Positions 8,877 to 46,776 of a DNA stretch of 64,000 nt are shown here, piece by piece. The stretch is from assembly GCA_003345555.1 (NCBI GenBank), contig PRDJ01000036.1:19809-83808 (forward strand), read 5' to 3'. The translations under genes were made by a program, and so were the position numbers. Source of the stretch: Candidatus Thorarchaeota archaeon. GTDB lineage: Archaea > Asgardarchaeota > Thorarchaeia > Thorarchaeales > Thorarchaeaceae. Each line of letters begins with the position of its first letter. Within the stretch, counting starts at the first letter, position 1. The notes beneath the pieces were generated by a model that saw only the letters and a list, made by a program, of their open reading frames with translations, searched no databases and had not been told where the DNA came from.

Positions 8877-9596
8877 TCACGGTTTCAACCGCACCATGAC
8901 GACAACTGGTATAGCTATAACACTTACAGAAATCAAGAACCAAAGAATCGTGTTGAGAGGCGGTAAGTCTGGATCTTCAGACTTCTCGGACGACATGAAT
9001 GATTGAATGTTGCTCTGGCCAAGCACGGTTGTGGACCAACTCCAGTAAGCCTCAGGATAGGCATGAAGCGAGGGACCGTGGCTCTCTGATACACAGACAA
9101 GAACACCAAGAGCGGACTCGTAGTAGAAGTCTCTCTGCACATCGTAGTCACTCTGAGTCCAGATAGTCTGGCATCTCCAGCACGTGAAGGTACCCACGGG
9201 AACATTCACCACAGCAGTTGCCGTGTCATACACAGGAGCCATTGGGTTTGCTGGCGGGATTCTTCCTTGGCCCTCGCCCAAAGTGGCAGTGTCCATCCAT
9301 AACGGATCCATGAATGCGCCCGCTTCTGTACCGTTCGAGTCCACGATACTCCAGCTTGGGAGCTTCACGTACTGCACATTGTCATCTGAGTATTCTATTT
9401 CTACAATCTCCTGCTCTTTCAGCCAGCTTAATACTTCGTACTTCACCTGTGAGCTGGCAGCACTAGTACCAGAGGCCGAATCAAAGACATCATATTCCAA
9501 CAGGAGGCCTATAGGAAAGTCTGCAGATGTCGGTTCTGCACTTGCTTGGGCCTGCACAGGTATGCCACCCATAAGAACGAAGAGGACTGAAACCAA
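8877..9596 (-). CDS. Secreted protein with C-terminal TM anchor, unknown function
   Basis: Signal peptide 'MVSVLFVLMGGIPVQAQASA'. C-terminal 'ILWFLISVSVIAIPVVVMVRLKP' matches the 'IAIPV' anchor motif of the beta-helix proteins. Confidence 0.45.
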   Translation of the reverse strand: MVSVLFVLMGGIPVQAQASAEPTSADFPIGLLLEYDVFDSASGTSAASSQVKYEVLSWLKEQEIVEIEYSDDNVQYVKLPSWSIVDSNGTEAGAFMDPLWMDTATLGEGQGRIPPANPMAPVYDTATAVVNVPVGTFTCWRCQTIWTQSDYDVQRDFYYESALGVLVCVSESHGPSLHAYPEAYWSWSTTVLGQSNIQSFMSSEKSEDPDLPPLNTILWFLISVSVIAIPVVVMVRLKP

Positions 9597-32328: not shown

Positions 32329-33099
32329 TCATTCGAGGATTCGTCTGAAGAGGATGGTTGCTATTGTAGCGAATATCGCTGTGGCGAGAAGACCAGCGCC
32401 CAAGTCAAGAGGGATATTCGAAACATATCCCGGAAGTAACAGAGCTCTCATCGCATCTGTGATATAGCTCAGAGGATTGTACGCCGATATTATCTGGAGC
32501 CAACCGGGCATCTGGTTAATTGGATAGATTGCACTGCTGGTGAAGAAAAGAGGCATGGTTATCGCTTGGCCTATTCCCATCATCTTCTCTCGACTCTTGA
32601 ATATTGGAGCCAAGCACATGGACAAACACGAGAAGCACATCCCGGCAATCACTATGACCAAGGCAACTCCGATGAGATCTAGCGGATTCAGACTTAGCTG
32701 AACATTGATGATTAGGGCCAGAACGAAGACAACAATGGCCTGGAATATGCCTCTGACCCCGGCCGATATAGCCTTGCCCAAGACTATCGCTGACCGAGGG
32801 GCTGGCGTAGAAAGGAGCTTGTTTAGGAGCCCAAGGTCCCTCTCCCAGACGAGCATTATCCCATAAAAGACGGCAACGAACATCACGGACTGCGACAGCA
32901 CTCCCGGAGTAAGGAATTGGAGGTACGTGAACGACCCGACGTCGATAGCTCTTATGCTGGTTAGTGCGGTCCCGAAAACTAGCAGCCAGAGTGCTGGCTG
33001 AACTCCGCGTATGAATATTTCTGAAGAATCGTGCCTGAGCTTTCGGAGCTCGAATTCAGCCAGTGTGGACACAGTGCGCAAGAACTTTGATCCGATCAT
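32329..33099 (-). CDS. ABC-2 family transporter permease
   Basis: 6-TM ABC-2 layout. Start chosen at the internal Met, which forms an ATGA overlap with the ATPase stop. The longer track ORF 32329-33147 would overlap by 52 nt. Confidence 0.6.
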   Translation of the reverse strand: MIGSKFLRTVSTLAEFELRKLRHDSSEIFIRGVQPALWLLVFGTALTSIRAIDVGSFTYLQFLTPGVLSQSVMFVAVFYGIMLVWERDLGLLNKLLSTPAPRSAIVLGKAISAGVRGIFQAIVVFVLALIINVQLSLNPLDLIGVALVIVIAGMCFSCLSMCLAPIFKSREKMMGIGQAITMPLFFTSSAIYPINQMPGWLQIISAYNPLSYITDAMRALLLPGYVSNIPLDLGAGLLATAIFATIATILFRRILE

Positions 33100-34082
33100 C
33101 CTTTTCGCTTCCTCATCGCTAATCTCGTGACTCGCGCATCCCGCCACGTGCCACCATCCTGAATCCTAGCCCCTGCGTACTTCAGGAACACGTCATCCAG
33201 TGTAGACTTCTTGAGCGAGACAGATTCAACGTGTATCTTATGAGCCTCAAGAGATTCCAATACTGCAGGTATAGCCTTCTCGCCCTGAGCTACTACGAGC
33301 TCGTACGTACCCTCATCGGGTTTTGACACCAACAGCTGCCCATGCTCTCGCAGGATTAATGAACAATCTCCGTCGTGAGCAGTGATTGAAATCATGTCTC
33401 CTCCCATATCGTCCTTCAGTTGTGTTGGCGACCCATCTGCCACAATCTTCCCTTTGTTCATTATCGCAATCTCATCGCAGAGCACCTCGGCTTCATGCAT
33501 ATCGTGAGTGGTCACCAACATTGTAGTCCCGAATTCGTCCCGTAGGTGCATTATCTGGTTCCAGACCGCGGTCTTCGCGGATGGATCAAGGCCAATGCTC
33601 GGCTCGTCAAGAAATAGCATCCTGGGTCTGTTCATGAGTGCCTGGGCTATCTCAAGCCGCCGCATCATTCCTCCCGAATAGGTCTTTGCCAAATCGTGCT
33701 GACGGTCGGCCAGCTCCATGTATTCAAGAGCGTCCTGAATTCTTTGACCCCGCTGTTCTTTCGGCGTGTAATATAGCTTCGAATACATCAGCAGGTTCTC
33801 ATAGCCCGAGAGGTCCGTGTCTATCGAGACCTCCTGAGGCACATAACCCGAGATTTGTCGAACAGATGCCGCGGACTTCACACAGTCGATTCCAAAGACC
33901 TTGATAGTTCCAGAGGTGGGTCTGATAAGGGTGAGCGCGATTCGTATGGTTGTCGTCTTCCCGGCACCATTTGGACCAAGGAGACCGAATATCTGGCCCT
34001 CATCAACATCGAACGATATCGAATCGACCGCCTTGAAGTCTGAGTACATCTTTGTCAGATCCATTGCCTCGACCGCTTTCAT
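33096..34082 (-). CDS. ABC transporter ATP-binding protein (DrrA-like)
   Basis: 'GLLGPNGAGKTTTIRIA', 'LSGGMMRRLEIAQAL', 'LFLDEPSIGLD'. Confidence 0.8.
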   Translation of the reverse strand: MKAVEAMDLTKMYSDFKAVDSISFDVDEGQIFGLLGPNGAGKTTTIRIALTLIRPTSGTIKVFGIDCVKSAASVRQISGYVPQEVSIDTDLSGYENLLMYSKLYYTPKEQRGQRIQDALEYMELADRQHDLAKTYSGGMMRRLEIAQALMNRPRMLFLDEPSIGLDPSAKTAVWNQIMHLRDEFGTTMLVTTHDMHEAEVLCDEIAIMNKGKIVADGSPTQLKDDMGGDMISITAHDGDCSLILREHGQLLVSKPDEGTYELVVAQGEKAIPAVLESLEAHKIHVESVSLKKSTLDDVFLKYAGARIQDGGTWRDARVTRLAMRKRKG

Positions 34083-34248
34083 GTCGGACTTTCCTCCGCT
34101 TTTCGAGGGTCAACTCAGTTATCATCTTGAAATGCAGTCTCTCTTCATCAGACCGTTTCGGTCAAAAGCAAGGCGGCTCATCTGATAAGCTCTACCCTTT
34201 GGCCGCAGTCCTGTATGTTGTGGGTCTCGTACCAGTAAGCTCTCCGAA

Positions 34249-34758
34249 TCAAGTGTCGAGACTCCCACGATGCTCCTTTGCCTTGCTCGCAACTGTAGGC
34301 ATGTTGGTGATTCTGCGCCTTTGGATGATTCCTCCTGCCAAACAATACATGCCAAGGAATAGGGACATCAGCGTTAGTGCTGCAGAATCTCCACCACCTC
34401 GGACACCCGATAACCCGACCACTAGGAACAAGACAGAGAAGCAAATCAAGAAGTAGATGCCCGGTGTAGCCTCGATGGTTGCCAGCCCTGCGCATCTTGG
34501 ACATAGGTATTCCTTAGCCCCTCCTAGTCTTTGGAACACATAGAGACACCGACCACAGAATGCTTGACCGCATCTGGTGCAGAAACCTGTCGTCAGGGCG
34601 TCTGAGTGATTCGGACATCGTTGAGTCAGTCCGGTTAGGCGGCGCGGGACTACAATCATCCCGCCGCAGTACGAGCACTTTACCTGCGTTGCGCTTGATG
34701 GCAATTCACCCTTCTGAGGTGCGCCACAGAACGGACAGACGAATGCCTCTCTCTCCAT
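34249..34758 (-). CDS. Zinc-ribbon/B-box-like membrane protein (paralog P3)
   Basis: 'MEREAFVCPFCGAP...CSYCGG...CPNHSDALTTGFCTRCGQAFCGRCLY...CPRC' plus 2 TM helices. The N-terminus is nearly identical to P1. Confidence 0.5.
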   Translation of the reverse strand: MEREAFVCPFCGAPQKGELPSSATQVKCSYCGGMIVVPRRLTGLTQRCPNHSDALTTGFCTRCGQAFCGRCLYVFQRLGGAKEYLCPRCAGLATIEATPGIYFLICFSVLFLVVGLSGVRGGGDSAALTLMSLFLGMYCLAGGIIQRRRITNMPTVASKAKEHRGSLDT

Positions 34759-34886
34759 TTGAATGCCCGGGCTTTATGCTCTACTCAAGGGGATATCAGG
34801 TTTGTGAACATGAGAAGAGATAGTCCGCTCAAACAGGATAGGTTGCTCGATCTTCACCCTGTGCATCGTGCCATGATGTTTCATCA

Positions 34887-35057
34887 TCAGACTTGGTCGG
34901 GCTCGCCTAGCATGCTGATCCTTCGTCCGCAGTTCTGACAGGAGAAGATGCGGTCAGGTCCAACCTTGTCAGGACCATAGCGATAGCTTGCACCACAGTA
35001 AAGGCACTTGACATAAACAGAATCTGCGCTTGGGAGGAACCCGTTTGTCTCCTTCAT
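34887..35057 (-). CDS. Small zinc-ribbon ORF (56 aa), homologous to the C-terminal ribbon of P1
   Basis: Manual translation MKETNGFLPSADSVYVKCLYCGASYRYGPDKVGPDRIFSCQNCGRRISMLGEPDQV. ATGA overlap with the stop of 35054-35524. Below the ORF-track length cutoff. Confidence 0.4.
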   Translation of the reverse strand: MKETNGFLPSADSVYVKCLYCGASYRYGPDKVGPDRIFSCQNCGRRISMLGEPDQV

Positions 35058-35524
35058 AATCTGCCCGAGAAGGGGATGGTTAATTGGTCCGAAGACTGCC
35101 CAGAGCCCCTCAGTAGTAGGAACAGGCCGTACACTGTGACATCGGATGGGTAATAGGCCCGTCTAGGAGGAATGAAGAAGACAGCAATCATCACGGTGAC
35201 TACACCTATGATTATTCTAGTCATGCGAGCTCGGTTCTTTGTCCTTCCCGAGCACGCTTCGCAGACATAGTTGTCCCTGAGTCTTTGATATATGTAGAGA
35301 CAGTTTTCACAGAATCTCCGACCAGACACGTCGCATGCTCCCACTGAAAGCACATCTGGATGGTTTGAACACAACTCTCTGGTTTCCGTGATATCACTGG
35401 AGAGTAGAATTGGATACCCGCAGGAACGGCATCGTGTTTGAAATGCTCCTTCGGGAGGTGTATCAACTTGAAGCGTACGATAAGAACGACAGATGATAGC
35501 CCCCTTCCTCACAGCTGTTCCCAC
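35054..35524 (-). CDS. Zinc-ribbon/B-box-like membrane protein (paralog P4), with a partly degenerate cysteine pattern
   Basis: 'CRSCG...CSNHPDVLSVGACDVSGRRFCENCLY...CEAC' plus TM helices. The first CPxCG is lost (IICRSY). Confidence 0.45.
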   Translation of the reverse strand: MGTAVRKGAIICRSYRTLQVDTPPEGAFQTRCRSCGYPILLSSDITETRELCSNHPDVLSVGACDVSGRRFCENCLYIYQRLRDNYVCEACSGRTKNRARMTRIIIGVVTVMIAVFFIPPRRAYYPSDVTVYGLFLLLRGSGQSSDQLTIPFSGRL

Positions 35525-35849
35525 ATCATCTGCAAGCCGTATTAGCTTATCAGGCGTGAAATACTGAGTCGGACAGCAGCTTGCCCCAACAATCCCGAGT
35601 CACCAAGTCATCTGTCCGCAAACTGGAAGGCAAGTGTCTCTTTCGTACAGGCCAGTATAGCGAAGCCCGACAACTGGCCTCACCTTCAGAAAGCCCGTCC
35701 ATACAATAGACCTGTCGCTCGGTTGGTTGCGCCCGCAATTGAAACGCGATTTGTTAATATGTCACAAACTTAACTGCAACCAAAATGGTTCACTCTCGGA
35801 CACATTGAGTCAGAAAAGCAGCTGAGCTCTAGAGATTGCATCCAAAGAA

Positions 35850-36113
35850 GTGATCCCCTTGGGAAAGAAGACACTGAGTGATGTCCCATGTCCTGTATGC
35901 AAGGGCCCTGTCACTGGCGTCATAGTTGAAGAGGATTCAATTCTGAATGCCAAGAGAGTGCCGGTCATCGTCCCGGCCAAGTGCAGAAAGGGACACGCAG
36001 TGATTCTGTTCGTAGACAGGGCATTCGTCATTCGTGATGTCGAAGCAGCTGGAGATGCCGAGCAGAAGAAGAGTGCCCTTGACAAGGCTCAGTCTTGGAT
36101 GGACTCATTCTGA
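35850..36113 (+). CDS. Small zinc-ribbon-like protein. First gene of the Roadblock-GTPase operon.
   Basis: 'CPVCKG...CRKGH' (C-x2-C...C-x3-H). Ends 11 nt before the Roadblock start. Confidence 0.35.
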   Translation: MIPLGKKTLSDVPCPVCKGPVTGVIVEEDSILNAKRVPVIVPAKCRKGHAVILFVDRAFVIRDVEAAGDAEQKKSALDKAQSWMDSF

Positions 36114-36120
36114 GGGTGAA

Positions 36121-36665
36121 CGAGATGATCAAGATGGTCTACGTCATTAACGACGCTGGCGAGACGCTCGTTTCAATTCCGCTAGGCGACTTTCATGCCG
36201 ATGAAGCACTGTTTGGCGGATTCATGACTGCTATTGACATGTTCAGTCACAAGATGGCTGGAGACTCAATAAAGGAACTCATTCTCGGAAACAATCGAGT
36301 CGTCGTCGCTCGTGAAGGCGCCCATCTTCTTGTCACCGTGCATGATAAGGGGGATACCGACAGCCAAACCATCAATGCGAGAGCATGCGAGGCTTTCCGG
36401 AAACACTACGGCGGCGTTGTGACCGACGAAATGACAGATGCTATTCGCGAAGCTGTTCTCGGTACCATATCTATTCGGGGCAAGGCAGAAGATTGGGCTT
36501 CAAAGATGCTCTAGAAGGAAACGGAAATGGCGATAGAGGTATACGTTGCAGCGGAATTTCTTATGTTTGTGAGCTTGATAGCAGCTAGCTTTGCGATTGC
36601 GGGATACACTCGTCGTCGAATCAGGGAGCTGCCTGAAGAGGACAAGAAACTGGGCAAACCACTCT
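36121..36665. repeat. Segmental duplication, copy A (Roadblock gene plus 5' end of the membrane-protein gene)
   Basis: Nucleotide-level similarity to 38878-39420, starting at 'gatcaagatggtctacgt'. Confidence 0.6.
36125..36514 (+). CDS. Roadblock/LC7 (MglB-like) domain protein
   Basis: About 129 aa: 'MIKMVYVINDAGETLVSIPLGDFHADEALFGGFMTAIDMFS...LILGNNRVVVAREGAHLLVTVHDKG'. Start placed at the ATG where homology with the duplicate copy begins. Confidence 0.65.
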   Translation: MIKMVYVINDAGETLVSIPLGDFHADEALFGGFMTAIDMFSHKMAGDSIKELILGNNRVVVAREGAHLLVTVHDKGDTDSQTINARACEAFRKHYGGVVTDEMTDAIREAVLGTISIRGKAEDWASKML

Positions 36666-38005
36666 ACGCATACGCAGCTGGCACTTTCGTGATGGGCATA
36701 ACATCCTTTGCCAACTACCTAGCAGGCACGCAAGTTGTGATAGGGCCGTGGGCATGGCGCTTTTGGCCATCATACGCCTATGTCGTCTTAGCCATACTTG
36801 CCCCGGCGTTCATTTCGATAGCTGCGTTGATCGTCCTTGGGCGAGAGCATTTCATGATCCCGACCCTTTTTGCATTGGTGCTTGTTAGCTACGTTTGGAT
36901 ATTGCCAATGATACCAAACCCAATCGATGCTCGTGATGCGACTGCAGATGTGTCCTCCGTCATGTACATACCCGCAGTCCTGCTATTCGGGTACATATTG
37001 GCCAAAACGAGAAAAGCCACCAGTCTCGGGCTTTTCTACGTGGTCACATTCTATCCTCTCTATCGGTTGACTGTTATCGGACTGTCTGCCGGGCCGGTGG
37101 ATCTCAGCATCGTCTTTCTTGCCCTGCGGCTGCTGGCGCCAGTAATTGCCGCCGTCGCATTCCAAGTACGTGATATAGGAATATCATTCGAACTGGCGGG
37201 GTATGGGATGGCATACGCGCTTATTGCATTCTGGCTTTCGTATCTCATGATATCCCCTGTTACCGACCCTGTGCTGATTGCATCTCTCACTCTGATTGCT
37301 CTCGGATCGACAATCGGATTTGGTACGGGTGCATACACGTATGCCCGCTGGAAGAAGAACAGGCTCGGAGCAACATTCGTTCTATTCCTGTCGTTTACTT
37401 TCACAACATGGGCGTTCATACTGGTAGCCCTTCAGGGCCTAGGTCTTGCAACAGCAATCTACTACACCTATGCTTACATTTTCCTGACCTTCATTGCCCT
37501 CATGTGTTTCAATATGGCCGCGTATCTTGCTCTGGAATGGAGGTCGCTTCTCTTGTTGCCCGTCCTGATGATACTGCCGCTATTGTTCTTCTTGTCGATC
37601 CAATACCCTAGTGACCCACGCCTTAATCCGTTCTTCATCCCGGCCATCAGTATAACAGGTGTCGTTGCAGCGATTGTACCTGTTGCGTTGTATCTTTACC
37701 TGTGGCAAAGAATGAGGCAAGCAAAGGCGCCAGCCGCGAGCAGACCCCTGTTGTTGGCCACTGGAATCCTTGGATTGACTCTTGCTTTGGCTGCAGGCCC
37801 CATTACAATGGGTACAGAGGTTCTGAATGTGGCAAATCCAATCAGCGGAGTTCTCACATTCATCGCTTTTCTAGCATGGTGGTTGGCAGTTACTGGTAGG
37901 AACGAACGTTTCATGAAATGGTTGCACTCCACATTCCTGAAACCCAAGCCTGCTCCGTCCACGCCTCCGCCAGCGGGAGCTGCCTCTCAGCCCGGTGGTG
38001 CCTGA
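36527..38005 (+). CDS. Polytopic membrane protein (about 13 TM), unknown function. Lies between the Roadblock and GTPase genes.
   Basis: 492 aa, highly hydrophobic, Pro/Ala-rich C-terminal tail. The stop is 2 nt before the GTPase ATG. Confidence 0.55.
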   Translation: MAIEVYVAAEFLMFVSLIAASFAIAGYTRRRIRELPEEDKKLGKPLYAYAAGTFVMGITSFANYLAGTQVVIGPWAWRFWPSYAYVVLAILAPAFISIAALIVLGREHFMIPTLFALVLVSYVWILPMIPNPIDARDATADVSSVMYIPAVLLFGYILAKTRKATSLGLFYVVTFYPLYRLTVIGLSAGPVDLSIVFLALRLLAPVIAAVAFQVRDIGISFELAGYGMAYALIAFWLSYLMISPVTDPVLIASLTLIALGSTIGFGTGAYTYARWKKNRLGATFVLFLSFTFTTWAFILVALQGLGLATAIYYTYAYIFLTFIALMCFNMAAYLALEWRSLLLLPVLMILPLLFFLSIQYPSDPRLNPFFIPAISITGVVAAIVPVALYLYLWQRMRQAKAPAASRPLLLATGILGLTLALAAGPITMGTEVLNVANPISGVLTFIAFLAWWLAVTGRNERFMKWLHSTFLKPKPAPSTPPPAGAASQPGGA

Positions 38006-38007
38006 AG

Positions 38008-38538
38008 ATGTCTGCCAGAATCCCCGTATTCAAGACTGTTCTGATCGGGGAGGGAGGGGTGGGCAAGACCAGTATCACGCTGCGGTACACGGAGAATCGT
38101 TTCGAAGATAGTATGCGCATGACGGTTGGTGCTAACTTCGCTTCCAAGAAGGTGACTATTGGCAGCACACAGATGACCATCATGCTTTGGGATCTGGGAG
38201 GACAGCCCCGATTTCATGACGTGGTACAGGACTACTTCAAGGGAAGCAAGTTCGGAATCGCAGTCTATGACGTCAATCGACTCTACACTTTGGAGCGGCT
38301 TGAGGAATGGATTCATCGATTGAGAGAAGTTGCGCCGGACTGTGACCTCCTCATTGTCGGTAACAAAATAGACGAGCGAACCAATGACGGTGGAGTAGCC
38401 CTTGCCGAAGGGATTGCGTTCGCATCCAAGTTCGGCGCTGACTGCATTGAGGTTTCAGCTAAGACAGGTCAGGGAGTAAATGAGATTTTCGAGACGGCTG
38501 CAAGGCTTCTCATCAAGAAGTACATACAGAAGGTATAG
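38008..38538 (+). CDS. Rab/Ras-like small GTPase (176 aa)
   Basis: G1 'LIGEGGVGKTS'. Switch I 'RMTVGANF'. G3 'LWDLGGQPRF'. 'VYDVN'. G4 'GNKID'. G5 'SAKTGQGV'. Confidence 0.8.
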   Translation: MSARIPVFKTVLIGEGGVGKTSITLRYTENRFEDSMRMTVGANFASKKVTIGSTQMTIMLWDLGGQPRFHDVVQDYFKGSKFGIAVYDVNRLYTLERLEEWIHRLREVAPDCDLLIVGNKIDERTNDGGVALAEGIAFASKFGADCIEVSAKTGQGVNEIFETAARLLIKKYIQKV

Positions 38539-38886
38539 CATCTTACCAATAGAGCGTAATTCAAGCTAATAGTAAGGCTCCTACCTTGTGTCCCGTCCCT
38601 CACATCATTGACACACAATTTGCTAATATATCGCTCGTTCATGGAAAGCCGAAAGGCCCCACTTCTCCATTGTGGAGTCGCCAGAAGACCAAGAACGATA
38701 TGTGGGTTGAAGGATCGCAGTCGGTATTCATAAGTAGGAAGTCGCTAGATAGTCTTCTCAGGAGAGAGCATCAACAATCACCCTCACTGACTCCGACAGC
38801 TATCTATCCCCACATCAGAAGCAAGGGGATGTCCTCAGCGTTCAATCAGAACCCATCTTGCTCTGAAGGTGATTAGTCTGATCAAG

Positions 38887-39267
38887 ATGGTCTACGTTAT
38901 CAACGAAGCTGGTGAGACATTGTCCGCCATTGCTCTCGGCAACTTCCATGCTGACGACGCGTTGTTCGGGGGTTTCATGTCTGCTATAGATATGTTCTCT
39001 CAGAAGATGGCGGGAGATGTCATAAAGGAGCTCGTCCTTGGTAATGACAGAGTCCTAGTTGCCCGTGAAGGAGTCTATCTTCTAGTCACGATACATGACA
39101 AAGGAGATACTGACAGCCAACTTGTGAGCCGAAAGGTATGCGAAGCGTTCCGTAAGCATTTTGCCGGTCTCGTAACTGAGGAGATGACACAAGCCATCCG
39201 TGAAGCAGCCTTAGGCAGTGAATCTGCAGGCAGAAAAGCGAAGGATTGGGCGTCGAGGATACTTTAG
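38887..39267 (+). CDS. Roadblock/LC7 domain protein, duplicate of 36125-36514
   Basis: 'MVYVINEAGETLSAIALGNFHADDALFGGFMSAIDMFS...' About 80% identical to copy 1. Confidence 0.6.
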   Translation: MVYVINEAGETLSAIALGNFHADDALFGGFMSAIDMFSQKMAGDVIKELVLGNDRVLVAREGVYLLVTIHDKGDTDSQLVSRKVCEAFRKHFAGLVTEEMTQAIREAALGSESAGRKAKDWASRIL

Positions 39268-39273
39268 GAGAAA

Positions 39274-39420
39274 ATGGAGATGGCAAAAAGACATACGTTG
39301 CGGCAGAGCTAATTATGTTTGACGTCTGATAGCGGCTGCCTTTGCGATAGTACAATACACTCGTCGTCGGATTAAGAAGCTTACCGAGGAAAACAGGAAA
39401 CTCGACAGACCTCTTCTTCT
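39274..39420 (+). pseudogene. Decayed 5' fragment of a duplicated membrane-protein gene (homolog of the 36527 gene)
   Basis: Nucleotide similarity to 36527-36665 ('atacgttgc.gc.ga...atgtttg...acactcgtcgtcg.at.a'), but the reading frame is broken (MEMAKRHTLRQS*). Confidence 0.35.
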
Positions 39421-39637
39421 CGCGTTGGGCGCAATTGCCTTCCTTCCAGCAATGCGTGGAGGCAGTATTTCGAATCCGGTCTCTAGCATCATAGTAGTCA
39501 TTGCTTTCCCATGCTGATGGCTAGTGGTCACAGAAAAGCTGGAAGCTCTCACAGAAGATGATATCTTACCGGGCATCTCTAGTGGGCTCGTGTCAGGGAT
39601 ATTTCCCCCGATACTACTCTAGATTACCGGCAGGCAC

Positions 39638-40375
39638 TCACTCTTTTGTCTCGCCAGAAATCCTTTCTATCTCTTTGATAGAAGTTACCCGTGAGTTCTC
39701 CCCGAAGAGATGACCCGCCCGCCTTTCCTTGGTCCGAATATAGAACTCGTTGTAGCGAGTCTGTTTCGTTATGAGTGGGATTCTTTCTAGGATTTTCACG
39801 CCATGCGCCTTGAGCTGCGCAATCTTCTCAGGATTGTTGGTCAGAAGCCGTATCGATTTTACTCTAAGAGACTTGAGCATATGCGCAGCGACTCCGTAGT
39901 CACGTTCGTCAGGTTGGTGTCCTAGGATTACGTTTGCATCGAAGGTATCAAAGCCTTCATCCTGTAGCGCGTAGGCCTTGATCTTCTCTGTGAGACCGAT
40001 GTTGCGACCCTCCTGACGCAGGTAAATGAGCACGCCCTCGCCGGTCTTCTGGATATATCTGAGCGACTCCAATAGCTGGTCTCTGCAGTCGCAACGTTTG
40101 CTGCCCATCACATCGCCTGTCAAGCATTCTGAATGCAAACGGACGACAACGCCCTCCTTGTCAACTACATCGCCTCTTACAAGTGCAGTGTGTTCCTTGT
40201 CATCACAGGGACTCACAAAACCGCATATCTGAAACTGACCAAACTGACTGGGCAAGTCAGCAACTGCAACAAGCCGAACGCAACATTCAATGGGATCGCA
40301 CGTATGCCCGACACTTTCTTTTATTAGAGATGCAATCTTCTCTTTTGACAGCTTCATCCTCGACACCCTATGCAT
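39638..40375 (-). CDS. ribA: GTP cyclohydrolase II (RibA)
   Basis: 'RLHSECLTGDVMGSKRCDCRDQL' is the zinc/GTP-binding signature. 'RNIGLTEKIKAYALQDEGFDTFDAN'. Confidence 0.75.
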   Translation of the reverse strand: MHRVSRMKLSKEKIASLIKESVGHTCDPIECCVRLVAVADLPSQFGQFQICGFVSPCDDKEHTALVRGDVVDKEGVVVRLHSECLTGDVMGSKRCDCRDQLLESLRYIQKTGEGVLIYLRQEGRNIGLTEKIKAYALQDEGFDTFDANVILGHQPDERDYGVAAHMLKSLRVKSIRLLTNNPEKIAQLKAHGVKILERIPLITKQTRYNEFYIRTKERRAGHLFGENSRVTSIKEIERISGETKE

Positions 40376-40575
40376 CCAAACGCATGTGATTGGCCCGGGA
40401 TTGAGGTCGGTCTCTTCCCAGACCTACCTCGAACTTCGCGCTGGAACGAATCGCATTGTCCTTTCCTTCGCTCTTTATACCTTTGTGTCCGTTAGCGTCA
40501 GTGCTATATGGTCATCAGCTACGCGGTTGCCAAGCACATTCGAATGAGAGACGGTGCACGAATTTGACCGACTTC

Positions 40576-41637
40576 ATGGAAGAGAACCTTGTCAAGGCCC
40601 AAGCTTGGTTGAAACAGAATACTAAGAGGTATGCCTTCAAGAAACTCGAGAAGGAGATCGTTAGAACAGAAGTATGTACTGAGTGCGGCAGCTGTGTCTC
40701 CTTCTGCCCCGTGAATGCACTGACGGGAGACTACTCTTCTGGAAAGTATGTTCCGACGCTAACGGGCAATTGCATAAGTTGTGGAATATGCTACACTTTG
40801 TGCCCGCGAACTGTTGTTCTTTCCCGGGATTTGATTGGTGATTTCAAGAGTGCTTGGAGGATTAGGTCAAAGATAGAGAACCAGACACGGCAAGATGGGG
40901 GCGCAGTAACAGCAGTCTTGGCATTCATGCTTGAAAAGCACATGATAGACGGCGCAATCGTTACAAAGCAGGACTCCAGCAAGCCATGGATGCCAGTTCC
41001 GTTCTTGGCGAGGAAGAGACAAGATGTGCTTTCCTCCGCTGGCACGATCTACACTCACTCTCCCATTGTGACTGAGATGATGAAAGCTCTCAGAAGTGGC
41101 CTTCACAATCTGGCCATTGTAGGAACATCGTGTCATATCGATTCTATCCAGAAAATGGAGCGCCACCCGGCGGGATTCTTTGCAGGCGCAAGCGTGTTCA
41201 AGGTAGGCTTGTTCTGTACGGAGTCATTTGGCTACCAAGGGTTGGTGGGCTTCTTTCAAAACGCGGGCTTGGACATTAAGAGCATCGGTCGAATGACAAT
41301 ATCATCTGGCGTCTTCAGCGCTACGACACCCACTGGAAAGCAAGAGTGGCCTGTGAAGGTATTGGGCGGGGTTGCGGCCAAGTCGTGCTCATACTGTCGT
41401 GACTTCACGTGCAAGAATGCAGACATATCATGCGGCAATGTGGGCTCGGATCCCGGCTGGACAATGGTCCTTGCTAGGAGCGAGCAAGGCGAGAAGGTGC
41501 TTCAAGACGCTATAACCAAGGGTGTCATAGAAGGCGAACGGGTAGATGTCAAGTTGCTGGAAGCAATCGAGAAATCCGCGCGTTCAAAGGCGATGCGATA
41601 TTACTCTTTGAAGCCCGGACAAGGAACAGACGAATGA
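40576..41637 (+). CDS. FrhB/FdhB/FpoF-family flavoprotein (coenzyme F420 hydrogenase/dehydrogenase beta-subunit-like) with an N-terminal 2x[4Fe-4S] ferredoxin
   Basis: 'CTECGSCVSFCPV' and 'CISCGICYTLCPR' cluster motifs, followed by an FrhB-like domain. Start moved to the internal ATG because the track's N-terminal 40 aa look non-coding. Confidence 0.6.
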   Translation: MEENLVKAQAWLKQNTKRYAFKKLEKEIVRTEVCTECGSCVSFCPVNALTGDYSSGKYVPTLTGNCISCGICYTLCPRTVVLSRDLIGDFKSAWRIRSKIENQTRQDGGAVTAVLAFMLEKHMIDGAIVTKQDSSKPWMPVPFLARKRQDVLSSAGTIYTHSPIVTEMMKALRSGLHNLAIVGTSCHIDSIQKMERHPAGFFAGASVFKVGLFCTESFGYQGLVGFFQNAGLDIKSIGRMTISSGVFSATTPTGKQEWPVKVLGGVAAKSCSYCRDFTCKNADISCGNVGSDPGWTMVLARSEQGEKVLQDAITKGVIEGERVDVKLLEAIEKSARSKAMRYYSLKPGQGTDE

Positions 41638-41760
41638 GTACTCTTCGGCAAGAGCCTCCTGCACGAGACCGCATTAAGGGAGTACGAACAGCCAGCCCGA
41701 TGAGACCACCAATGCGAGAAGGAACTTGAGTCTCATTCATAAGGTCGTCCTGCAAAAAGA

Positions 41761-42285
41761 TTGGTGATGCGTCGTAACATACTGCTGACCGGAAGACCAG
41801 GCATAGGCAAGAGCACAGTTATCAGGAAGGTCATTGGCGTACTCGGAGAGACACAATTTGAAGGGTTCTGGACGAGCGAAGTTCGCCTCGGGACTGAGAG
41901 GGTAGGATTCAGCATAAGCACCATTGATGGCCAACAGGGCATGCTTGCAGGAATGGACTCCTATTCGGGACCGCGGATAGGCCGATACATTGTAAATGTA
42001 CCTGACATCGATCGCATCATAGTACCCACTCTTAGGCGTGCGAGAGAAACCGGCAAGACAATCGTCATAGATGAGATTGCCAGTATGGAGCTGACATCCC
42101 CCGGTTTTGCTCCCGAAGTCAGGAAGTGTCTCGATACAAGGAGGGTTCTTGGCACGCTCCAGCAAAAGGGAGGAAGCTTCGTCCAAGAGGTGAAGGAACG
42201 TCTTGATGTCGTAGTCCTAGAACTCACAATCTTGAACAGAGACCTAATCCATCGAGACATTCTATCAATGCTACGGCAACAGTGA
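41761..42285 (+). CDS. THEP1-family nucleoside-triphosphatase (NTPase_1)
   Basis: 'ILLTGRPGIGKSTVIRKV' P-loop and 'IVIDEIASMEL'. Size of about 175 aa fits the family. Confidence 0.7.
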   Translation: MVMRRNILLTGRPGIGKSTVIRKVIGVLGETQFEGFWTSEVRLGTERVGFSISTIDGQQGMLAGMDSYSGPRIGRYIVNVPDIDRIIVPTLRRARETGKTIVIDEIASMELTSPGFAPEVRKCLDTRRVLGTLQQKGGSFVQEVKERLDVVVLELTILNRDLIHRDILSMLRQQ

Positions 42286-42287
42286 TT

Positions 42288-44048
42288 CTACCTAGACTTT
42301 GTCCTGAAGTACAGCATTGCTATAATTAGCGACGACAGCAGGCCTAGAGCTAGCAATAAGCCCCAAAGATAACCAGGGCTCTCCTCCTGTAACATAGACG
42401 TGACGACGACTGTCATCCATGGAGTTGTATGGACATTCTTCATGGAAGAATTATCGACCGCGATAACCCTGTAGACGACAATAGATCCTACAGCATATTC
42501 ACCCAGTGAGGCCGAGTACAAATCTCTCCCTTGAGACTGCATCGTTGCGTTCACTGTATGGTTTGTGTCGAGTCCCCATTCGACTCTTATGCTGCTTATG
42601 TTATTGATGTCCCAGCAGTAGACTTGGACGGTCAAGTTGTTGGCGTAGCCTGTGGTGAATGACTGGATGACTGCGAAGCCACTAACCGTCGGGATATGCG
42701 CGTCGGCGGTCACGTTAACGGTCGTGACTGTTACAGCACTCTGGTTGAAGAAATCAGTCAACGTCATGTTGTAAACATGAATACCTACTGAGAGTCGATC
42801 TACGTTAACACTCAGGTTCTCGCCTCGCCACGTACCGTTCATTAGCACAGCACCGTCGCGAGTGAGGTTGTACGACCGCGGGTTGCTCTCATCTGCACTC
42901 CAGTTCAGATAGTTGCCCTTGTAGCCTTCTTCATAACCAAGATAGGCCTTTCCTGTTACAACGGGAGCCCGAATGTCTTTGTAGATTGTGACATTCAATG
43001 AGTCAGTGTTGTTGCGTCCGTACTTATCAAAAAGCAGTATTGTGAATGTGTAGTTACCCAAGAAGATCGAATCCAAGCTTGTTGTGACGTCGTTACCTTC
43101 AGGATCGATGAAAGTCCATGAAGCCATAGTGATGTTTGTGGGGCTATGAAAAGCAGAGACATTACCGTAGCTACTGTTGGTATAGAGTGTTGTCACTCTG
43201 ACTGTGTAGTTCTTGGGATTGCTGTCATACACATGCCAGACTATCTTGTGTCCCCTTGAGCCAAACTCGAAAGTGAGATCATCGGGCTGGGTAACGGTCG
43301 GAGGAGTCACGTCCAGATAGACAGTGACGTTCACCGAGCTGGTGGCATTGTGTTTGAGAGTGTCGTTGACAAACAGGGTATAGACATACCAGTGAGTTGC
43401 ATTCAAGCCGTCCACGTTTATTGATATGTTCGCACCATAGAACTGTCCAGACTTTACAACCGTACGATTACTGGTGGTTTCGTTAGACGTTCTGGTTACA
43501 TTGTAGAAATCGGGGTTGCTCTCCGTGATATTCCATGTCACAGTATGTCCGAAGCTACCCTCTTCGTAGCTGAAGTTGGCAGGGGCACTTATGATGGGCG
43601 ATGTTGTATCGGCAATCAGTGTTACAAGAACCTCATCCGACACGGACTCATTGCTGGTGTTGAACACCTTGCAGACAAAGACGAATAGTGCGGGCAAAGT
43701 ACTCACTAGCTTCTCAGTGTAGAGGTGGTTCAGAAGCACTTCAATGGCTCCACCTGACCAGGAGCCCGATTTGTGAATCGTACCGTTTCTCGTTACAGTG
43801 TAGTTCTTTGGCGATGGGTCCGTAGAATTCCACACGATTTTCTTGTTTACTGTACCATTCTCGTAAGTCATATCAGAAGGACTGCTGATGCTGGGAGCCG
43901 CTGGAGCGAATTGACCCTCTGGCTTCAGATTGCTAACTAGAGAACTGAAGGACGATGAGACACAGGGTGACAGAACCAACCAAAACACTGTCATGACCAT
44001 GATGAATCTGCTGTGATGGCTCGAAAGCATTGGTGCACCATCCGCCAT
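42288..44048 (-). CDS. Secreted surface protein with 4-5 tandem ~100-aa Ig-like repeats and a C-terminal TM anchor
   Basis: Signal peptide. Repeats of the pattern 'P.V..P.D..YE.GS.GH.I.W...DSNP..Y.V.R'. Many NxS/T sequons. C-terminus 'LWGLLLALGLLSSLIIAMLYFRTKSR'. Confidence 0.6.
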   Translation of the reverse strand: MADGAPMLSSHHSRFIMVMTVFWLVLSPCVSSSFSSLVSNLKPEGQFAPAAPSISSPSDMTYENGTVNKKIVWNSTDPSPKNYTVTRNGTIHKSGSWSGGAIEVLLNHLYTEKLVSTLPALFVFVCKVFNTSNESVSDEVLVTLIADTTSPIISAPANFSYEEGSFGHTVTWNITESNPDFYNVTRTSNETTSNRTVVKSGQFYGANISINVDGLNATHWYVYTLFVNDTLKHNATSSVNVTVYLDVTPPTVTQPDDLTFEFGSRGHKIVWHVYDSNPKNYTVRVTTLYTNSSYGNVSAFHSPTNITMASWTFIDPEGNDVTTSLDSIFLGNYTFTILLFDKYGRNNTDSLNVTIYKDIRAPVVTGKAYLGYEEGYKGNYLNWSADESNPRSYNLTRDGAVLMNGTWRGENLSVNVDRLSVGIHVYNMTLTDFFNQSAVTVTTVNVTADAHIPTVSGFAVIQSFTTGYANNLTVQVYCWDINNISSIRVEWGLDTNHTVNATMQSQGRDLYSASLGEYAVGSIVVYRVIAVDNSSMKNVHTTPWMTVVVTSMLQEESPGYLWGLLLALGLLSSLIIAMLYFRTKSR

Positions 44049-44213
44049 TGGTCTTGATTGCGGCTAGCGCCCGCTCGAACAGGGGGCCCGTTTTATACTC
44101 TTCGGTGGCCGCGTCTCTTCTCTCAGAGAAAGGTCTGTATGGTGAATACTATTAAGACCCTGCGTTGCTACTGACACTGGGACCTATCGGACTCATACTG
44201 TCAAGGAGAATCG

Positions 44214-45128
44214 TTGATGCCCAAGGCCATCTATGCAATATGGTGGGACCCCAACCTCGGTCCTTTTCTCGGCCGGTCATACCCAGAGAATGATCCGCTG
44301 ACGTCCGAAGAAGCTGTAGTCATCTTCATGGGGCATGGACTGCAACAAGAAGCGAAGGTCGGCTACACAAAGTTGGCAAAGGGGTTGGTGGTATCTTATC
44401 TTGACAGCCCAAACTGTATCGCGGTACTACTGGATGAGAACGATGATCCCTCAGTTGTCGAAAGGAATCTGCTTAGACTCGTCGGCCGTATCAATTTCAA
44501 CAGCAGCAAATGGGATGCGGAGATAACGCGTGCCTTTCTTCTGTTGCAGGAACTCATCGCAGAGACATCTGGCCAAGAGCTGCTTTCCAATCCCCACGTT
44601 ACCAGACTTGTCGAAGACATGGCTACGGGTAGAGTGTCAGCCCTGGTTCCTAGGCACGTGCTAAGGGCAACTGCAAAATACCCAAAGGCTTCGGACTACT
44701 TGGGACCCGATGAGGAAGAGGTCTCAAGACTGCTTAAGGATCTAGAACGTGCAGGCCACTTGGTTCCGAAGACATATGGAAGAAGAGTTGAATGCAGACA
44801 GTGTGGAGGCACCGAAGTCACTCTCGAACTCGCGTGCCCTTCGTGTGGGAGTAATGACATCTACAAAGTCTATCTGGTGTTCTGCCCCAAGTGCGGTAAT
44901 AGGACTCAGACAGTACTCGTAGATGACTTGACCGAGGTACGGTGCCAACAATGCAAGCAGCCTGCAAAGGTGTCAGAACTGTCTGTCATAGACGTGGAGC
45001 TGCTCTGCAAAGGGTGTGGGCAGGCGACAAACGATCCCAAAATTGTACTGTCTTGTGCGAATTGTGGAAAGCACATGACAAACACTGATCTTTTAGGCGG
45101 GACAGGGTTGGCATACTATCCGGCGTAG
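44214..45128 (+). CDS. Roadblock/longin-like N-domain protein with a wHTH-like middle region and four C-terminal zinc ribbons
   Basis: N-terminus 'AIYAIWWDPNLGPFLGRSYPEND'. C-terminus 'CRQCGG...CPSCGS...CPKCGN...CQQC...CKGCGQ...CANCGK'. Confidence 0.4.
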   Translation: MMPKAIYAIWWDPNLGPFLGRSYPENDPLTSEEAVVIFMGHGLQQEAKVGYTKLAKGLVVSYLDSPNCIAVLLDENDDPSVVERNLLRLVGRINFNSSKWDAEITRAFLLLQELIAETSGQELLSNPHVTRLVEDMATGRVSALVPRHVLRATAKYPKASDYLGPDEEEVSRLLKDLERAGHLVPKTYGRRVECRQCGGTEVTLELACPSCGSNDIYKVYLVFCPKCGNRTQTVLVDDLTEVRCQQCKQPAKVSELSVIDVELLCKGCGQATNDPKIVLSCANCGKHMTNTDLLGGTGLAYYPA

Positions 45129-45165
45129 CTCAAGAGGTCAAAGCGTCAATAGATTGCCAGGCCAT

Positions 45166-46776
45166 TCATGACCTCTTTCGCTCAGTCCCCTTTTGGGGTT
45201 TTGACTTGATGGCTTTCTTCAGAGCATCACGCACGTTCGCAAGTATCTTCTCCGCCTGCGATACGCTGAGACCTTTCGCCTTTGATGACAACCGCTGAGG
45301 TGTCTCGCCTGCGAGTTGCTGTGCCGACTCGTACCCCGCCTCTCGAAGTCTCTCCTCCATTCTTGCACCTATTCCGGGAATCTTGCGTAGTGGAAGTACC
45401 TTCTCCATATCCGGGCCAATTATGTCGTGCATGTCCTTATCGCTGAGCTCTTGCATTCCCATGATGTCAAGCTGGCTCTTTATTGACTCGAATTCCCCTG
45501 ACCCAACGTACTGTTCGACTGTCTGCTTCACAAGGCGTTCGTCGAAATCGAGACTCAACTTCTCTATTTCTATCTCCTTTCCGAGAATCTCTGGGATGGG
45601 TGCAGACCTGTACAGAGCAAGCATTGCAAGAAGAATCGCGATCTGCGTTCCGAGAACTCGCAGATCGGCAGGGGGATACCAGTTGATTACAAAGGAGACC
45701 CGAAGCGATACGGCCCAGAAGAGGGCTACATACCCAGCGAAGAAGATCCATACTGCAGCTGTTCTGCGGCTCTTGGTCCTCGGAGAACCGATTTCGGGCC
45801 ATATCAGTAGCAAGATGAGGCCCAGAAAGAAACCTTCGATGAACCTCTCGGAGACCAGCAAAGCCGCAGCATACAATTGTATGGCCTCCACAGCAATCGG
45901 ACTCAGTATTGTCAGTAGACCAAACAGGAGTACTCCGGTAGTGAAGGCGCCCTTTCTCCCTCTCCGGTCAGCGATTGTTCCAGCAACAACAATCCCTACA
46001 ATCATCATAATGGGCTCATAGAGCGAAAGACCCGAGTACTGGCCCAACGATTCGTACGTGCTAAACCCGGCATCTTGGAGCACCTTGATTATTCCTAGCT
46101 GTGTCCCAAAGTACCACAGGATGTGTCCGGCCATGAGGATTGTGACAGGGATAAAGTACGACAATGCGTTCCCTTGGACGGCAAAGCGTTTGTACTCCAT
46201 TCTCCAAGGTTTGAATGCGAGACCGAGTAGTACCGCGCCAACTGCCAGAATCTCCATCACTGGGATTCCTGATGCATCCAGGTTTATTCCATATGAGCCA
46301 AGAGCTGAGTAGATAGCAAACAGAACCAGTGAGAAGGTCATGAAAGCCGCGATGACCCTTCCCCGATACTTGGCTACCACGGCCTTGCCGAGTTGCACAA
46401 CCCAGCTGAGCAGCATAACCGCCATACCGCTGAAGACGGATACTGTGAACAGCATCTCAAGCCCGGGGGAGGATGTGCTTGGAGTTCCTGTTTGAACGAG
46501 ATACATGCCAACAAACAGGGGAACAATCGCGGCAAACGTCGTAATGACATAGCCTCGTCCGATATAATCGACAATGAATCCGGCCACAAGCAAGGTCAAT
46601 ACTGTAGAAAGGAGACCTATCCCCAAGAACTGTAGATTCTGCCCGCCAAATGCCGGAAAGAGGGCTTGGTTGCTCAATTGAGTAATTGCATACATGAAAT
46701 AGGCCATGGTTGGAGATACTAGCGCGAAGTATGCGGCCTTCCTGAAGGGAAACTCCCTGTACTCAAGCATATCCAA
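45166..46776 (-). CDS. MFS transporter fused to a C-terminal cytoplasmic helix-hairpin-helix (HhH) domain
   Basis: 'DYIGRGYVITTF' and 'ADRRGRKGAF' MFS motifs. C-terminus 'LRKIPGIGARMEERLREAGYESAQQLA' is HhH. Confidence 0.6.
   Translation of the reverse strand: MDMLEYREFPFRKAAYFALVSPTMAYFMYAITQLSNQALFPAFGGQNLQFLGIGLLSTVLTLLVAGFIVDYIGRGYVITTFAAIVPLFVGMYLVQTGTPSTSSPGLEMLFTVSVFSGMAVMLLSWVVQLGKAVVAKYRGRVIAAFMTFSLVLFAIYSALGSYGINLDASGIPVMEILAVGAVLLGLAFKPWRMEYKRFAVQGNALSYFIPVTILMAGHILWYFGTQLGIIKVLQDAGFSTYESLGQYSGLSLYEPIMMIVGIVVAGTIADRRGRKGAFTTGVLLFGLLTILSPIAVEAIQLYAAALLVSERFIEGFFLGLILLLIWPEIGSPRTKSRRTAAVWIFFAGYVALFWAVSLRVSFVINWYPPADLRVLGTQIAILLAMLALYRSAPIPEILGKEIEIEKLSLDFDERLVKQTVEQYVGSGEFESIKSQLDIMGMQELSDKDMHDIIGPDMEKVLPLRKIPGIGARMEERLREAGYESAQQLAGETPQRLSSKAKGLSVSQAEKILANVRDALKKAIKSKPQKGTERKRS

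Follow-up and report, generated by a model that had tools for sequence, protein, structure and literature searches.

The window analysed here, a 64,000-nt stretch of Candidatus Thorarchaeota DNA, holds a tightly packed operon that encodes a Zn-ribbon protein, a longin-fold protein, a membrane protein of about 15 transmembrane (TM) helices and a Rab-like small GTPase. Beyond this module A lie a second, intact longin-fold gene and the remains of a second membrane gene. We consider it very probable that this arrangement goes back to an old tandem duplication of all four genes, after which module B was dismantled while its longin-fold gene (longin-B) was retained for the GTPase that remains.

Results

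The genes of the module are separated by 2-12 nt or overlap. The first is an ORF call at 35850..36113 (+) for an 87-aa Zn-ribbon protein (CPVC...C-x2-GH) that has no Pfam match. Its orthologues share 88-92% identity in loci L001, L002 and L008, falling to 60% in the distant L022 and L024; in all five they lie immediately 5' of the longin gene. Longin-fold gene A (36095..36514, +) begins at TTG 36095 (139 aa) or ATG 36125 (129 aa), the former being the start called in relatives. It is followed by the gene for polytopic membrane protein A (Mem-A; 36527..38005, +; 492 aa), which belongs to no known family. None of the Zn-ribbon, longin and membrane proteins has an NCBIfam model, and a Foldseek search of the membrane protein against the PDB gave no significant match; we make no claim of GPCR homology. 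An internal 7+7 TM duplication was also considered and dropped, as hhalign of the two halves gave no signal. The cytoplasmic loop of this protein reads YTRRRIRELPEEDKKLGKPL.

The fourth gene (38008..38538, +; 176 aa) starts 2 nt past the membrane-gene stop and encodes a small GTPase (Pfam Ras, E 1e-39), which places the repeat discussed below just downstream of a GTPase gene, as the preliminary description had it. Among PDB sequences it comes closest to Rab21 (1.6e-33) and to 'Thorarchaeota Rab' 7ezb (2.3e-31), with Sec4, Rab18 and Rab5 also among the top matches, and the motifs GEGGVGKT, WDLGGQ, NKID and SAK are readable. Judged by its sequence, the protein classes as Rab-type, that is, as a Ras-superfamily G domain with G1-G5 that is nearest to Rabs. 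It groups with the A-type GTPases, apart from GTPase-B of L008. Its C-terminus (...LLIKKYIQKV) contains no Cys, and thus no C-terminal Cys prenylation motif; prenylation machinery has been reported missing in Lokiarchaeum and TACK archaea (PMC4917890, Table 1).

The small second gene had been taken for a Roadblock gene, a label that we abandon. Neither window copy matches the Robl_LC7 profile (PF03259) at E <= 0.1, and only 1 of the 40 family members scanned does (E 0.002). Roadblock proteins have the topology α-β-β-α-β-β-β(-α) with an N-terminal helix (PMC10933270), a layout from which the AF2 model departs, having a β-strand from residue 2 and C-terminal helices at 80-94, 101-112 and 117-128. 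The predicted elements (E2-8, E14-19, H27-43, E49-54, E57-64, E67-74, H80-94, H101-112) instead follow the longin topology β-β-α-β-β-β-α-α in a model (pLDDT 77.8, pTM 0.72) that is a prediction and no solved structure. The solved structures closest to the protein are longin domains. At the sequence level, neither window protein reaches a Pfam longin threshold: longin A hits Fuz_longin_1 at E 0.098 with 13.3 bits, below the cutoff of 26.1. Among the 40 family members scanned, Fuz_longin_1 matches 8 (best 2.7e-8), Longin 2 and Clat_adaptor_s 1, while a PDB sequence search with the longin profile returned nothing at E <= 10.

Two paralogous copies are present where they had been described: with blastn, 38879-39414 aligns to 36126-36663 over 539 columns (70.3% identity, E 1e-65), and a global alignment of 36121-36665 against 38874-39416 gives 379/545 identities (69.5%), which is below the roughly 80% first estimated. 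Significance is better judged from the blastn E-value, since the gapped global aligner yields a 51% baseline on shuffled controls. The similarity spans about 540 nt and falls into three collinear blocks with offsets of 2753, 2752 and 2751 nt, indicating two 1-nt deletions in copy B. The repeat consists of longin-B and the first 46 codons of membrane-B, and it is truncated there because a deletion junction cuts membrane-B. Longin-B (38869..39267, +) is an intact gene, as previously noted, starting at GTG 38869 (132 aa) or ATG 38887 (126 aa). Its product aligns without gaps to longin A at 72% amino-acid identity. The identity by codon position is 80/88/40%, and the dN/dS-type comparison proposed earlier for the two small genes gives pS 0.82, which is saturated and beyond the Jukes-Cantor limit, against pN 0.16. 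A pS this high lends no support to gene conversion between the copies.

The repeat is very unlikely to be an assembly artefact, as the sequence matches across three assemblies, which may share reads: 32887-45267 is 100% identical in contigs of JGI 3300012964 and ENA ERZ27227667, and 38739-39700 is covered identically by a Logan contig (SRR6436091).

Related loci reveal the original extent of the duplication. In L008, L009 and L018 the unit Zn-longin-Mem-GTPase is present twice and complete. In L001, L002 and L003 the complete unit is followed by a Zn-B remnant, longin and Mem, GTPase-B being lost and Zn-B degenerate; the genome of the window goes beyond these losses, with Zn-B fully eroded and most of membrane-B gone. 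L010, L011, L012 and L014 have a single module. Duplicated and single-module loci share their flanks, an ABC transporter upstream and ribA and FrhB downstream. In the window, ribA (GTP cyclohydrolase II; 39638..40375, -; Pfam GTP_cyclohydro2, E 5e-64) is convergent to the module, and it is a conserved downstream anchor that takes the same position in L001-L003, L008-L012, L014 and L018. The four-gene order recurs in the distant loci L022, L023 and L024, at identities of 60% (Zn), 35-39% (longin), 33% (Mem) and 66-69% (GTPase). A profile search of genome contigs with the longin alignment found only two loci, both in Thorarchaeota MAGs.

In neighbour-joining trees of the longin and membrane genes, the window and its relatives split into A and B clades that span at least four lineages, longin-B of the window falling in the latter; for the GTPase and Zn-ribbon genes, intact B copies exist in L008 only, and these branch outside the A clade. 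With midpoint rooting, the single-module lineage groups with A in the Mem, GTPase and Zn trees, so the duplication may be older still, with module B lost in that lineage. L016 and L017, which carry a B-type Mem as an orphan, give a hint of this.

Little of module B other than longin-B has survived in the window: membrane-B, Zn-B and GTPase-B have all decayed. The position of Zn-ribbon B is taken by a 330-nt spacer (38539..38868, +) in which the gene has eroded past recognition. Zn-B is intact in L008; in L001 (E 9e-10) and L002/L003 (E 0.004) it has degenerated and no longer has its Zn ligands, and no similarity to it is left in the window spacer (best E 0.4). A search of 38539-38886 for remnants of Zn-B, GTPase-B or a DUF1801 gene gave nothing convincing (best E 0.16-0.4), and the 96-aa ORF at 38586-38876 is probably spurious.

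Membrane-B is a unitary pseudogene, with lesions relative to syntenic 472-aa orthologues in L001, L002, L003 and L008. Its 5' segment (39280..39415, +) comprises codons 1-46 and reads in three frames as MA.. / KKTYVAAELIMF / LIAAAFAIVQYTRRRIKKLTEENRKLDRPL; by blastn it is 72% identical to codons 5-46 of Mem-B of L001 and of Mem-A of the window. One 1-nt deletion lies in the A5 run at 39285-39289 and the other within 39321-39326. The frameshift recognised earlier is real, in keeping with the block offsets, and the peptide given for it, MEMAKRHTLRQS*, corresponds exactly to 39274-39312. Within the stub lies the motif YTRRR..ELPxEDKK.GRPL, the best conserved of the family and kept even in 33%-identical homologues. 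Its identity to Mem-A by codon position is 0.74/0.81/0.60; differences are thus still concentrated at third positions, indicating that membrane-B evolved mostly under selection and broke late. A seeming paradox, that the stub is closer to copy A than the coding longin is, dissolves, as the identities are comparable (71% versus 69%).

Homology to the membrane gene resumes past 39414, which had been overlooked. A 3' segment (39404..39622, +) spans codons about 405-456, followed by a tail that has degenerated: intact membrane-B orthologues align with their codons 405-456 to 39404-39557 (70% by blastn across 155 nt), tblastn of L002 Mem-B residues 391-456 recovers the segment at E 9e-14, and it shows the B-type 8-residue gap. 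A TGG>TGA nonsense change at 39515-39517 gives 'C*W' where the orthologues have 'CWW'. The junction between the segments (39406..39414, +; AGACCTCTT) is a (G/S)RPL-coding microrepeat, the 5' homology stopping at 39414 and the 3' homology beginning at 39406. It joins codon 46 to codon 406, so that 362 codons (about 1086 nt) are lost in frame. The intact Mem genes examined (three Mem-B orthologues and Mem-A of the window) have [RK]PL at codons 44-46 and 406-408, encoded at both sites by similar DNA (GCAGACCNCT).

Longin-B itself retains all 32 of the 32 invariant family columns and is found full-length in every duplicated locus recovered. Its dN/dS is 0.050 against L001-B and 0.068 against L002-B; these values, averaged over all the time since the lineages diverged, point to strong purifying selection over that period. 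Three small disabling lesions occur in the 340-nt Mem-B stub versus none in the 384 nt of longin-B; under equal neutrality, the chance of finding none in longin-B would be about 0.03. Of the earlier proposal that a GTPase-regulator gene is undergoing paralog birth and pseudogenisation, the paralogy thus stands, but the regulator-like copy is not decaying. The ancestral start of longin-B (M/L/V-D-G-L...) is gone, the window having T-H-L-A-L-K-V; longin-B of L002 has a shorter start too and is otherwise conserved.

Discussion

The duplication arose in an ancestor of this clade, in which the entire four-gene operon was duplicated in tandem, and the B module has since been lost piecemeal, gene by gene, to an extent that differs between lineages. 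In the window, microhomology between two (G/S)RPL-coding repeats led to the in-frame loss of 362 codons that destroyed membrane-B, with two 1-nt deletions and a nonsense codon as further hits.

A recent segmental duplication of about 540 bp, covering the regulator and the 5' end of the membrane gene and just starting to decay in its new copy, was the initial interpretation, and it is understandable in that the DNA homology visibly ends near 39414-39420 and the membrane-gene start of copy B is frameshifted. We now give it next to no credence. Synonymous sites are saturated and only 40% of third codon positions are identical, orthologous B copies with a full-length membrane-B exist in at least four other lineages, and the sequence past 39414 matches the 3' end of membrane-B. 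The apparent end of the repeat at 39414-39420 is hence the junction of a later internal deletion and no duplication boundary; the unit was the four-gene operon that L008, L009 and L018 still hold twice. Hardly more credible is an assembly or sequencing artefact, either through collapse or chimerism of the repeat or through homopolymer errors that mimic frameshifts. The source is a metagenome assembly and the first frameshift does sit in an A5 run, but the JGI, ENA (MEGAHIT-style) and Logan assemblies agree, though possibly from the same reads, copies just 70% identical cannot be collapsed or confused, and read errors cannot account for all of the 1086-nt deletion, the nonsense codon and the second frameshift, which lies in no homopolymer. 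That module B was transferred horizontally from a related archaeon to a site beside A, with no tandem duplication, appears very unlikely as well. The B genes have long branches, and a propensity of Asgard ESP genes for HGT, loss and duplication has been reported (bioRxiv 10.1101/2020.10.19.343400). However, the modules lie head to tail in identical gene order and orientation, close relatives of the longin and membrane proteins were found only in this clade (15 and 12 clusters), and the nearest outside relatives are 33-39% identical versus 47-79% between A and B.

What longin-B does today is a separate matter. It could be functionally dead already, redundant after the loss of membrane-B and merely unhit so far: its ancestral start is lost, its module partners are gone and the low dN/dS may date from before the loss of Mem-B. 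We regard this as unlikely, since it runs for 384 nt without frameshift or stop beside a 340-nt stub with three small lesions and a large deletion, keeps every invariant family position, shares the shorter start with the otherwise conserved L002 copy and has survived GTPase-B in three other lineages. Longin and Roadblock proteins form dimeric platforms for small GTPases, which they bind and regulate as GEFs or GAPs (PMC10933270). The longin of module A most likely regulates the adjoining Rab-like GTPase at the membrane protein, and longin-B was most likely retained as a needed second subunit, in an A/B heterodimer, or as a second regulator of the sole GTPase. It is possible, at a clearly lower probability, that longin-B is an independent homodimeric regulator, either in a GEF/GAP split on the same GTPase or acting on another of the many small GTPases of the genome. 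Only four residues distinguish A from B longins (42 H/Q, 67 H/Y, 96 G/A and 98 V/L), so that functional divergence is small, which argues against a very different partner. An improbable extension of retention for the remaining GTPase is that the module forms an archaeal receptor-type switch in which a membrane protein with a GPCR-like helical bundle would recruit or control a longin-dimer exchange factor for the Rab-like GTPase. Such a switch would foreshadow, in a prokaryote, the logic of eukaryotic membrane-anchored longin-GEF/Rab or LYCHOS-GATOR-Rag systems, and the universal survival of longin-B would mark the transition from homodimer to obligate heterodimer, the core architecture of TRAPP and Mon1-Ccz1.

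Asgard small GTPases and their longin/Roadblock partners are mostly not co-encoded, so it is hard to tell which regulator pairs with which GTPase (PMC10933270), and whether operons reveal GTPase targets has been counted among the outstanding questions (PMC4917890). In the module described here, a Rab-like GTPase stays tied to one longin, one polytopic membrane and one Zn-ribbon protein across lineages as distant as 33-39% identity. This four-protein set is a concrete target for biochemical reconstitution, and the longin is the component kept in two copies, a testable hint on subunit stoichiometry or a regulatory division of labour.

In eukaryotes, longin heterodimers form the cores of several GEFs: TRAPPC1/TRAPPC4 (Bet5/Trs23) for Rab1, Mon1-Ccz1 for Rab7, Fuzzy-Inturned and HPS1-HPS4. 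Unlike these, the window proteins have a single domain of 126-139 aa, with putative GEF activity and heterodimerisation, and share an operon with polytopic membrane and Zn-ribbon proteins, a pairing for which we know of no eukaryotic counterpart. The MglA-MglB pair is a prokaryotic precedent for a Ras-like GTPase whose gene adjoins that of its regulator, a Roadblock dimer. By comparison, the regulator described here has longin topology, without the N-terminal helix and with extra C-terminal helices, the GTPase is Rab-like and not MglA-like, and the module has two more conserved genes. An Asgard operon of a LAMTOR1-like protein, a Rab-like GTPase and a DENN-domain protein has been described (bioRxiv 10.1101/2020.10.19.343400). 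Both are among the few conserved Asgard neighbourhoods that pair a Rab-like GTPase with a Roadblock-superfamily protein, but ours has no DENN and no LAMTOR1-like protein, and has the ~15-TM and Zn-ribbon proteins instead. The likeness to the LYCHOS (GPR155)-GATOR1-Rag axis is topological only and an analogy, there being no significant Foldseek match and no sequence similarity. The history of the locus resembles any tandem operon duplication with differential loss: the modules are paralogous, the losses differ by lineage, and a stretch between short direct repeats has been deleted. Its only oddity is that a single gene, longin-B, consistently survives. As genome evolution, the duplication and decay are routine; the comparison is of value in that it exposes an uncharacterised four-gene operon.

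Results

The duplicated sequence lies in a compact operon on the plus strand, composed of a Zn-ribbon gene (35850-36113, 87 aa), a small gene for a predicted longin (copy A, 36095 or 36125 to 36514), a polytopic membrane gene (membrane-A, 36527-38005, 492 aa) and a small GTPase gene (38008-38538, 176 aa; Pfam Ras-family E 1e-39), with intergenic spacings of -19 or 11 nt, then 12 nt, then 2 nt. The window belongs to a Candidatus Thorarchaeota, an Asgard archaeon: two Thorarchaeota MAGs are the sole matches among the species genomes scanned, and NCBI assigns the identical membrane protein to a Thorarchaeota MAG. Rabs give the best sequence matches to the GTPase, led by Rab21 (1.6e-33) and the solved structure of a 'Thorarchaeota Rab', 7ezb (2.3e-31), with Sec4 and Rab5 next. 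After a gap of 330 nt, a second small gene (longin-B, plus strand, GTG 38869 or ATG 38887 to 39267) is followed by a stub of a second membrane gene and by the convergent GTP cyclohydrolase II gene (ribA, 39638-40375). Just upstream of the operon, two minus-strand genes (34249-34758 and 35054-35524) encode paralogous proteins, 36% identical over 87 aa (E 2e-16), in which B-box-like or zinc-ribbon domains are combined with hydrophobic segments at the C-terminus. Between two and five genes without annotation occupy the equivalent position in related loci, and the pair may represent another family that is expanding locally.

Within the window, blastn aligns 38879-39414 with 36126-36663 (70.3% identity, 539 columns, E 1e-65), confirming the repeat that a preliminary description had located here, along with its intact small ORF and frameshifted membrane-gene start in copy B, where the peptide MEMAKRHTLRQS* corresponds exactly to 39274-39312. 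The identity of 'roughly 80%' given there is too high, as global alignment of 36121-36665 with 38874-39416 yields 379/545 = 69.5%. A repeat search of the window breaks the match into three collinear blocks, offset by 2753, 2752 and 2751 nt, indicating two single-base deletions in copy B relative to copy A.

The small protein had been taken for a Roadblock protein. Neither copy matches Pfam Robl_LC7, and the sole Pfam hint for the window proteins is Fuz_longin_1 (E 0.098). The AlphaFold2 model (pLDDT 77.8, pTM 0.72) has the order β-β-α-β-β-β-α-α(-α) without an N-terminal helix, which matches the longin rather than the Roadblock arrangement (contrasted in PMC10933270), and the protein is thus predicted to be a longin, not a Roadblock. 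An exhaustive profile search returned 54 relatives; among the 40 scanned for domains, Fuz_longin_1 occurs in 8 (best 2.7e-8), Longin in 2, Clat_adaptor_s in 1 and Robl_LC7 in 1 (weak), and two carry a fused Ras-type GTPase domain. The membrane protein belongs to no Pfam or NCBIfam family; its model has about 15 helices (pLDDT 76.7), and Foldseek found nothing significant, the best match, LYCHOS (E 0.13), being a topological resemblance only.

Elsewhere in the window, a 297-aa protein (46930-47823) looks longin-like at its N-terminus (Fuz_longin_1 E 9.5e-5, Longin E 0.004) and has C-terminal winged-helix matches (HTH_47, TrmB), all below Pfam thresholds; it would be a putative fusion of a longin and a DNA-binding domain. 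A second small-GTPase-type gene (59596-60828, 410 aa) codes for about 220 unannotated residues followed by a Ras-family GTPase domain at the C-terminus (Pfam Ras E 9e-18), and its product shares only 24% identity with the GTPase of the operon.

Longin-A and longin-B align without gaps at 72% amino-acid identity, and their genes are 80%, 88% and 40% identical at the three codon positions. The proportion of differences is 0.82 at synonymous sites, beyond the Jukes-Cantor limit, and 0.16 at non-synonymous sites. Judged by these values, the pair is an old duplicate kept by purifying selection, not the 'recent' one first proposed.

The small-protein family forms only 15 clusters among 5.8 billion proteins, and the contigs of these clusters were fetched for synteny. 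All syntenic loci have the same flanks, with an ABC transporter on the upstream side and ribA and FrhB on the downstream side. Four (L010, L011, L012, L014) hold a single module of Zn-ribbon, small protein, membrane protein and GTPase; three, from three samples (L008, L009, L018), hold two complete four-gene modules in tandem; another three (L001, L002, L003) hold module A, then small-B and a full-length 472-aa membrane-B without GTPase-B; the window retains nothing of module B but small-B and the stub, and L005, L006 and L007 match it at 100% identity. In neighbour-joining trees made for all four module proteins, the A copies and the B copies of the small and membrane proteins from the window and its relatives fall into clades of their own, the GTPase of the window is of the A type, and the sole intact B copies of GTPase and Zn-ribbon (L008) branch outside the A clade. 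Duplicate modules and trees together indicate that the unit duplicated was the whole operon rather than ~540 bp. The duplication is also older than the divergence of at least four lineages, among whose orthologues dS is 0.9-2.8.

An orphan B-type membrane gene (6001-7416 in both L016 and L017; 471 aa, 60% identical to L008 membrane-B) lies in an unrelated locus, where its neighbours are a metallo-β-lactamase-fold gene on one side and an MTTB gene on the other, with no adjoining longin, Zn-ribbon or GTPase gene. Since the single-module locus L011 comes from the same JGI sample (3300031885), the A/B trees may underestimate the age of the duplication.

Searched by tblastn with intact membrane proteins, the stub consists of two parts: codons 1-46 (39280-39415), spread over three reading frames, and codons about 405-456 (39404-39557; E 9e-14 with L002 membrane-B, 70% identity over 155 nt by blastn), which retain the B-type 8-residue gap. 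The parts overlap at AGACCTCTT (39406-39414), coding RPL, and every intact family member examined has (G/S)[RK]PL, encoded by similar DNA, at codons 44-46 and 406-408. The overlap and the motif at both ends show that a microhomology-mediated deletion removed the interior in frame, taking out 362 codons (about 1086 nt). The apparent end of the repeat, previously read as a duplication boundary, falls at this internal junction. Further lesions are a 1-nt deletion in an A5 run (39285-39289), a 1-nt deletion within 39321-39326 and TGG>TGA at 39515-39517 ('C*W' vs 'CWW' in orthologues); beyond about 39557 the tail has degenerated, and another frameshift may lie in it. Codon-position identity of the remnant to intact genes is 0.74/0.81/0.60, and since differences are still concentrated at third positions, membrane-B was mostly under selection historically and broke comparatively late.

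Decay of Zn-B is graded: L008 has an intact gene, the L001 copy is degenerate and lacks the ligands (E 9e-10), L002 and L003 retain a barely recognisable remnant (E 0.004), and in the window spacer (38539-38868) the gene is undetectable. In L008 (10482-10811), L009 and L018, GTPase-A and Zn-B are separated by a DUF1801/DUF5655 gene (109 aa), which went undetected in that spacer. Membrane-A of L002, a 916-kb NCBI Thorarchaeota contig, is called as only 437 aa (7712-9025) after a 178-nt gap behind longin-A; it is 492 aa in the near-identical L003, and its shortness may be a start-codon or frameshift problem of the assembly.

Longin-B keeps 32/32 invariant family columns, and its dN/dS (0.050 vs L001-B, 0.068 vs L002-B) is at least as low as that of longin-A (0.09-0.12). 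Its 384 nt contain no disabling lesion, against three small ones in the adjacent 340-nt stub; we put the chance of this under equal neutrality at about 0.03. Decay of the second copy, as originally suggested, thus holds for the B module but not for the regulator gene. The A and B longin clades are separated at only four positions (42 H/Q, 67 H/Y, 96 G/A, 98 V/L), and the two proteins probably share partners. Two of these four diagnostic residues are the histidines H42 and H67 of A (window 36125-36511, longin alignment A2), replaced by Q and Y in B.

Discussion

The evolutionary event is ordinary: the operon was duplicated in tandem, followed by lineage-specific loss of B genes, with a microhomology deletion destroying membrane-B in the window genome and purifying selection holding longin-B. 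Three distant relatives (L022, L023, L024) have the same four-gene order with just 35-39% longin identity (Zn-ribbon 60%, membrane protein 33%, GTPase 66-69%), which argues that the four proteins work together. In L022, PAS-domain sensor histidine-kinase genes (591-2798 and 7046-8452) flank the module, against which a 257-aa and a 185-aa gene are packed; this setting suggests a possible connection with two-component signalling.

Longin and Roadblock dimers are established small-GTPase-binding platforms that act as GEFs or GAPs (PMC10933270). Longin-A most likely acts at the membrane protein as the regulator of the Rab-like GTPase encoded beside it. Longin-B, effectively a fifth gene downstream of the GTPase in the window, would most likely have been kept because the one GTPase left uses it either as a second subunit, in an A/B heterodimer, or as a further regulator.

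Asgard ESP genes are reportedly prone to duplication and loss and lie mostly outside conserved neighbourhoods, one known exception being a LAMTOR1-like/Rab-like/DENN operon (bioRxiv 10.1101/2020.10.19.343400). Small GTPase genes of the cultured Lokiarchaeon MK-D1 do not, as a rule, share an operon with a Roadblock or longin gene, so that GTPases and regulators are hard to pair (PMC10933270), and the value of operons as a clue to GTPase targets has been listed as an outstanding question (PMC4917890). A non-exhaustive literature search found no description of a Zn-ribbon/longin/polytopic membrane protein/Rab-like GTPase module. The four-protein module, an uncharacterised variation on the GTPase-plus-longin/Roadblock theme, is a good candidate for reconstitution.
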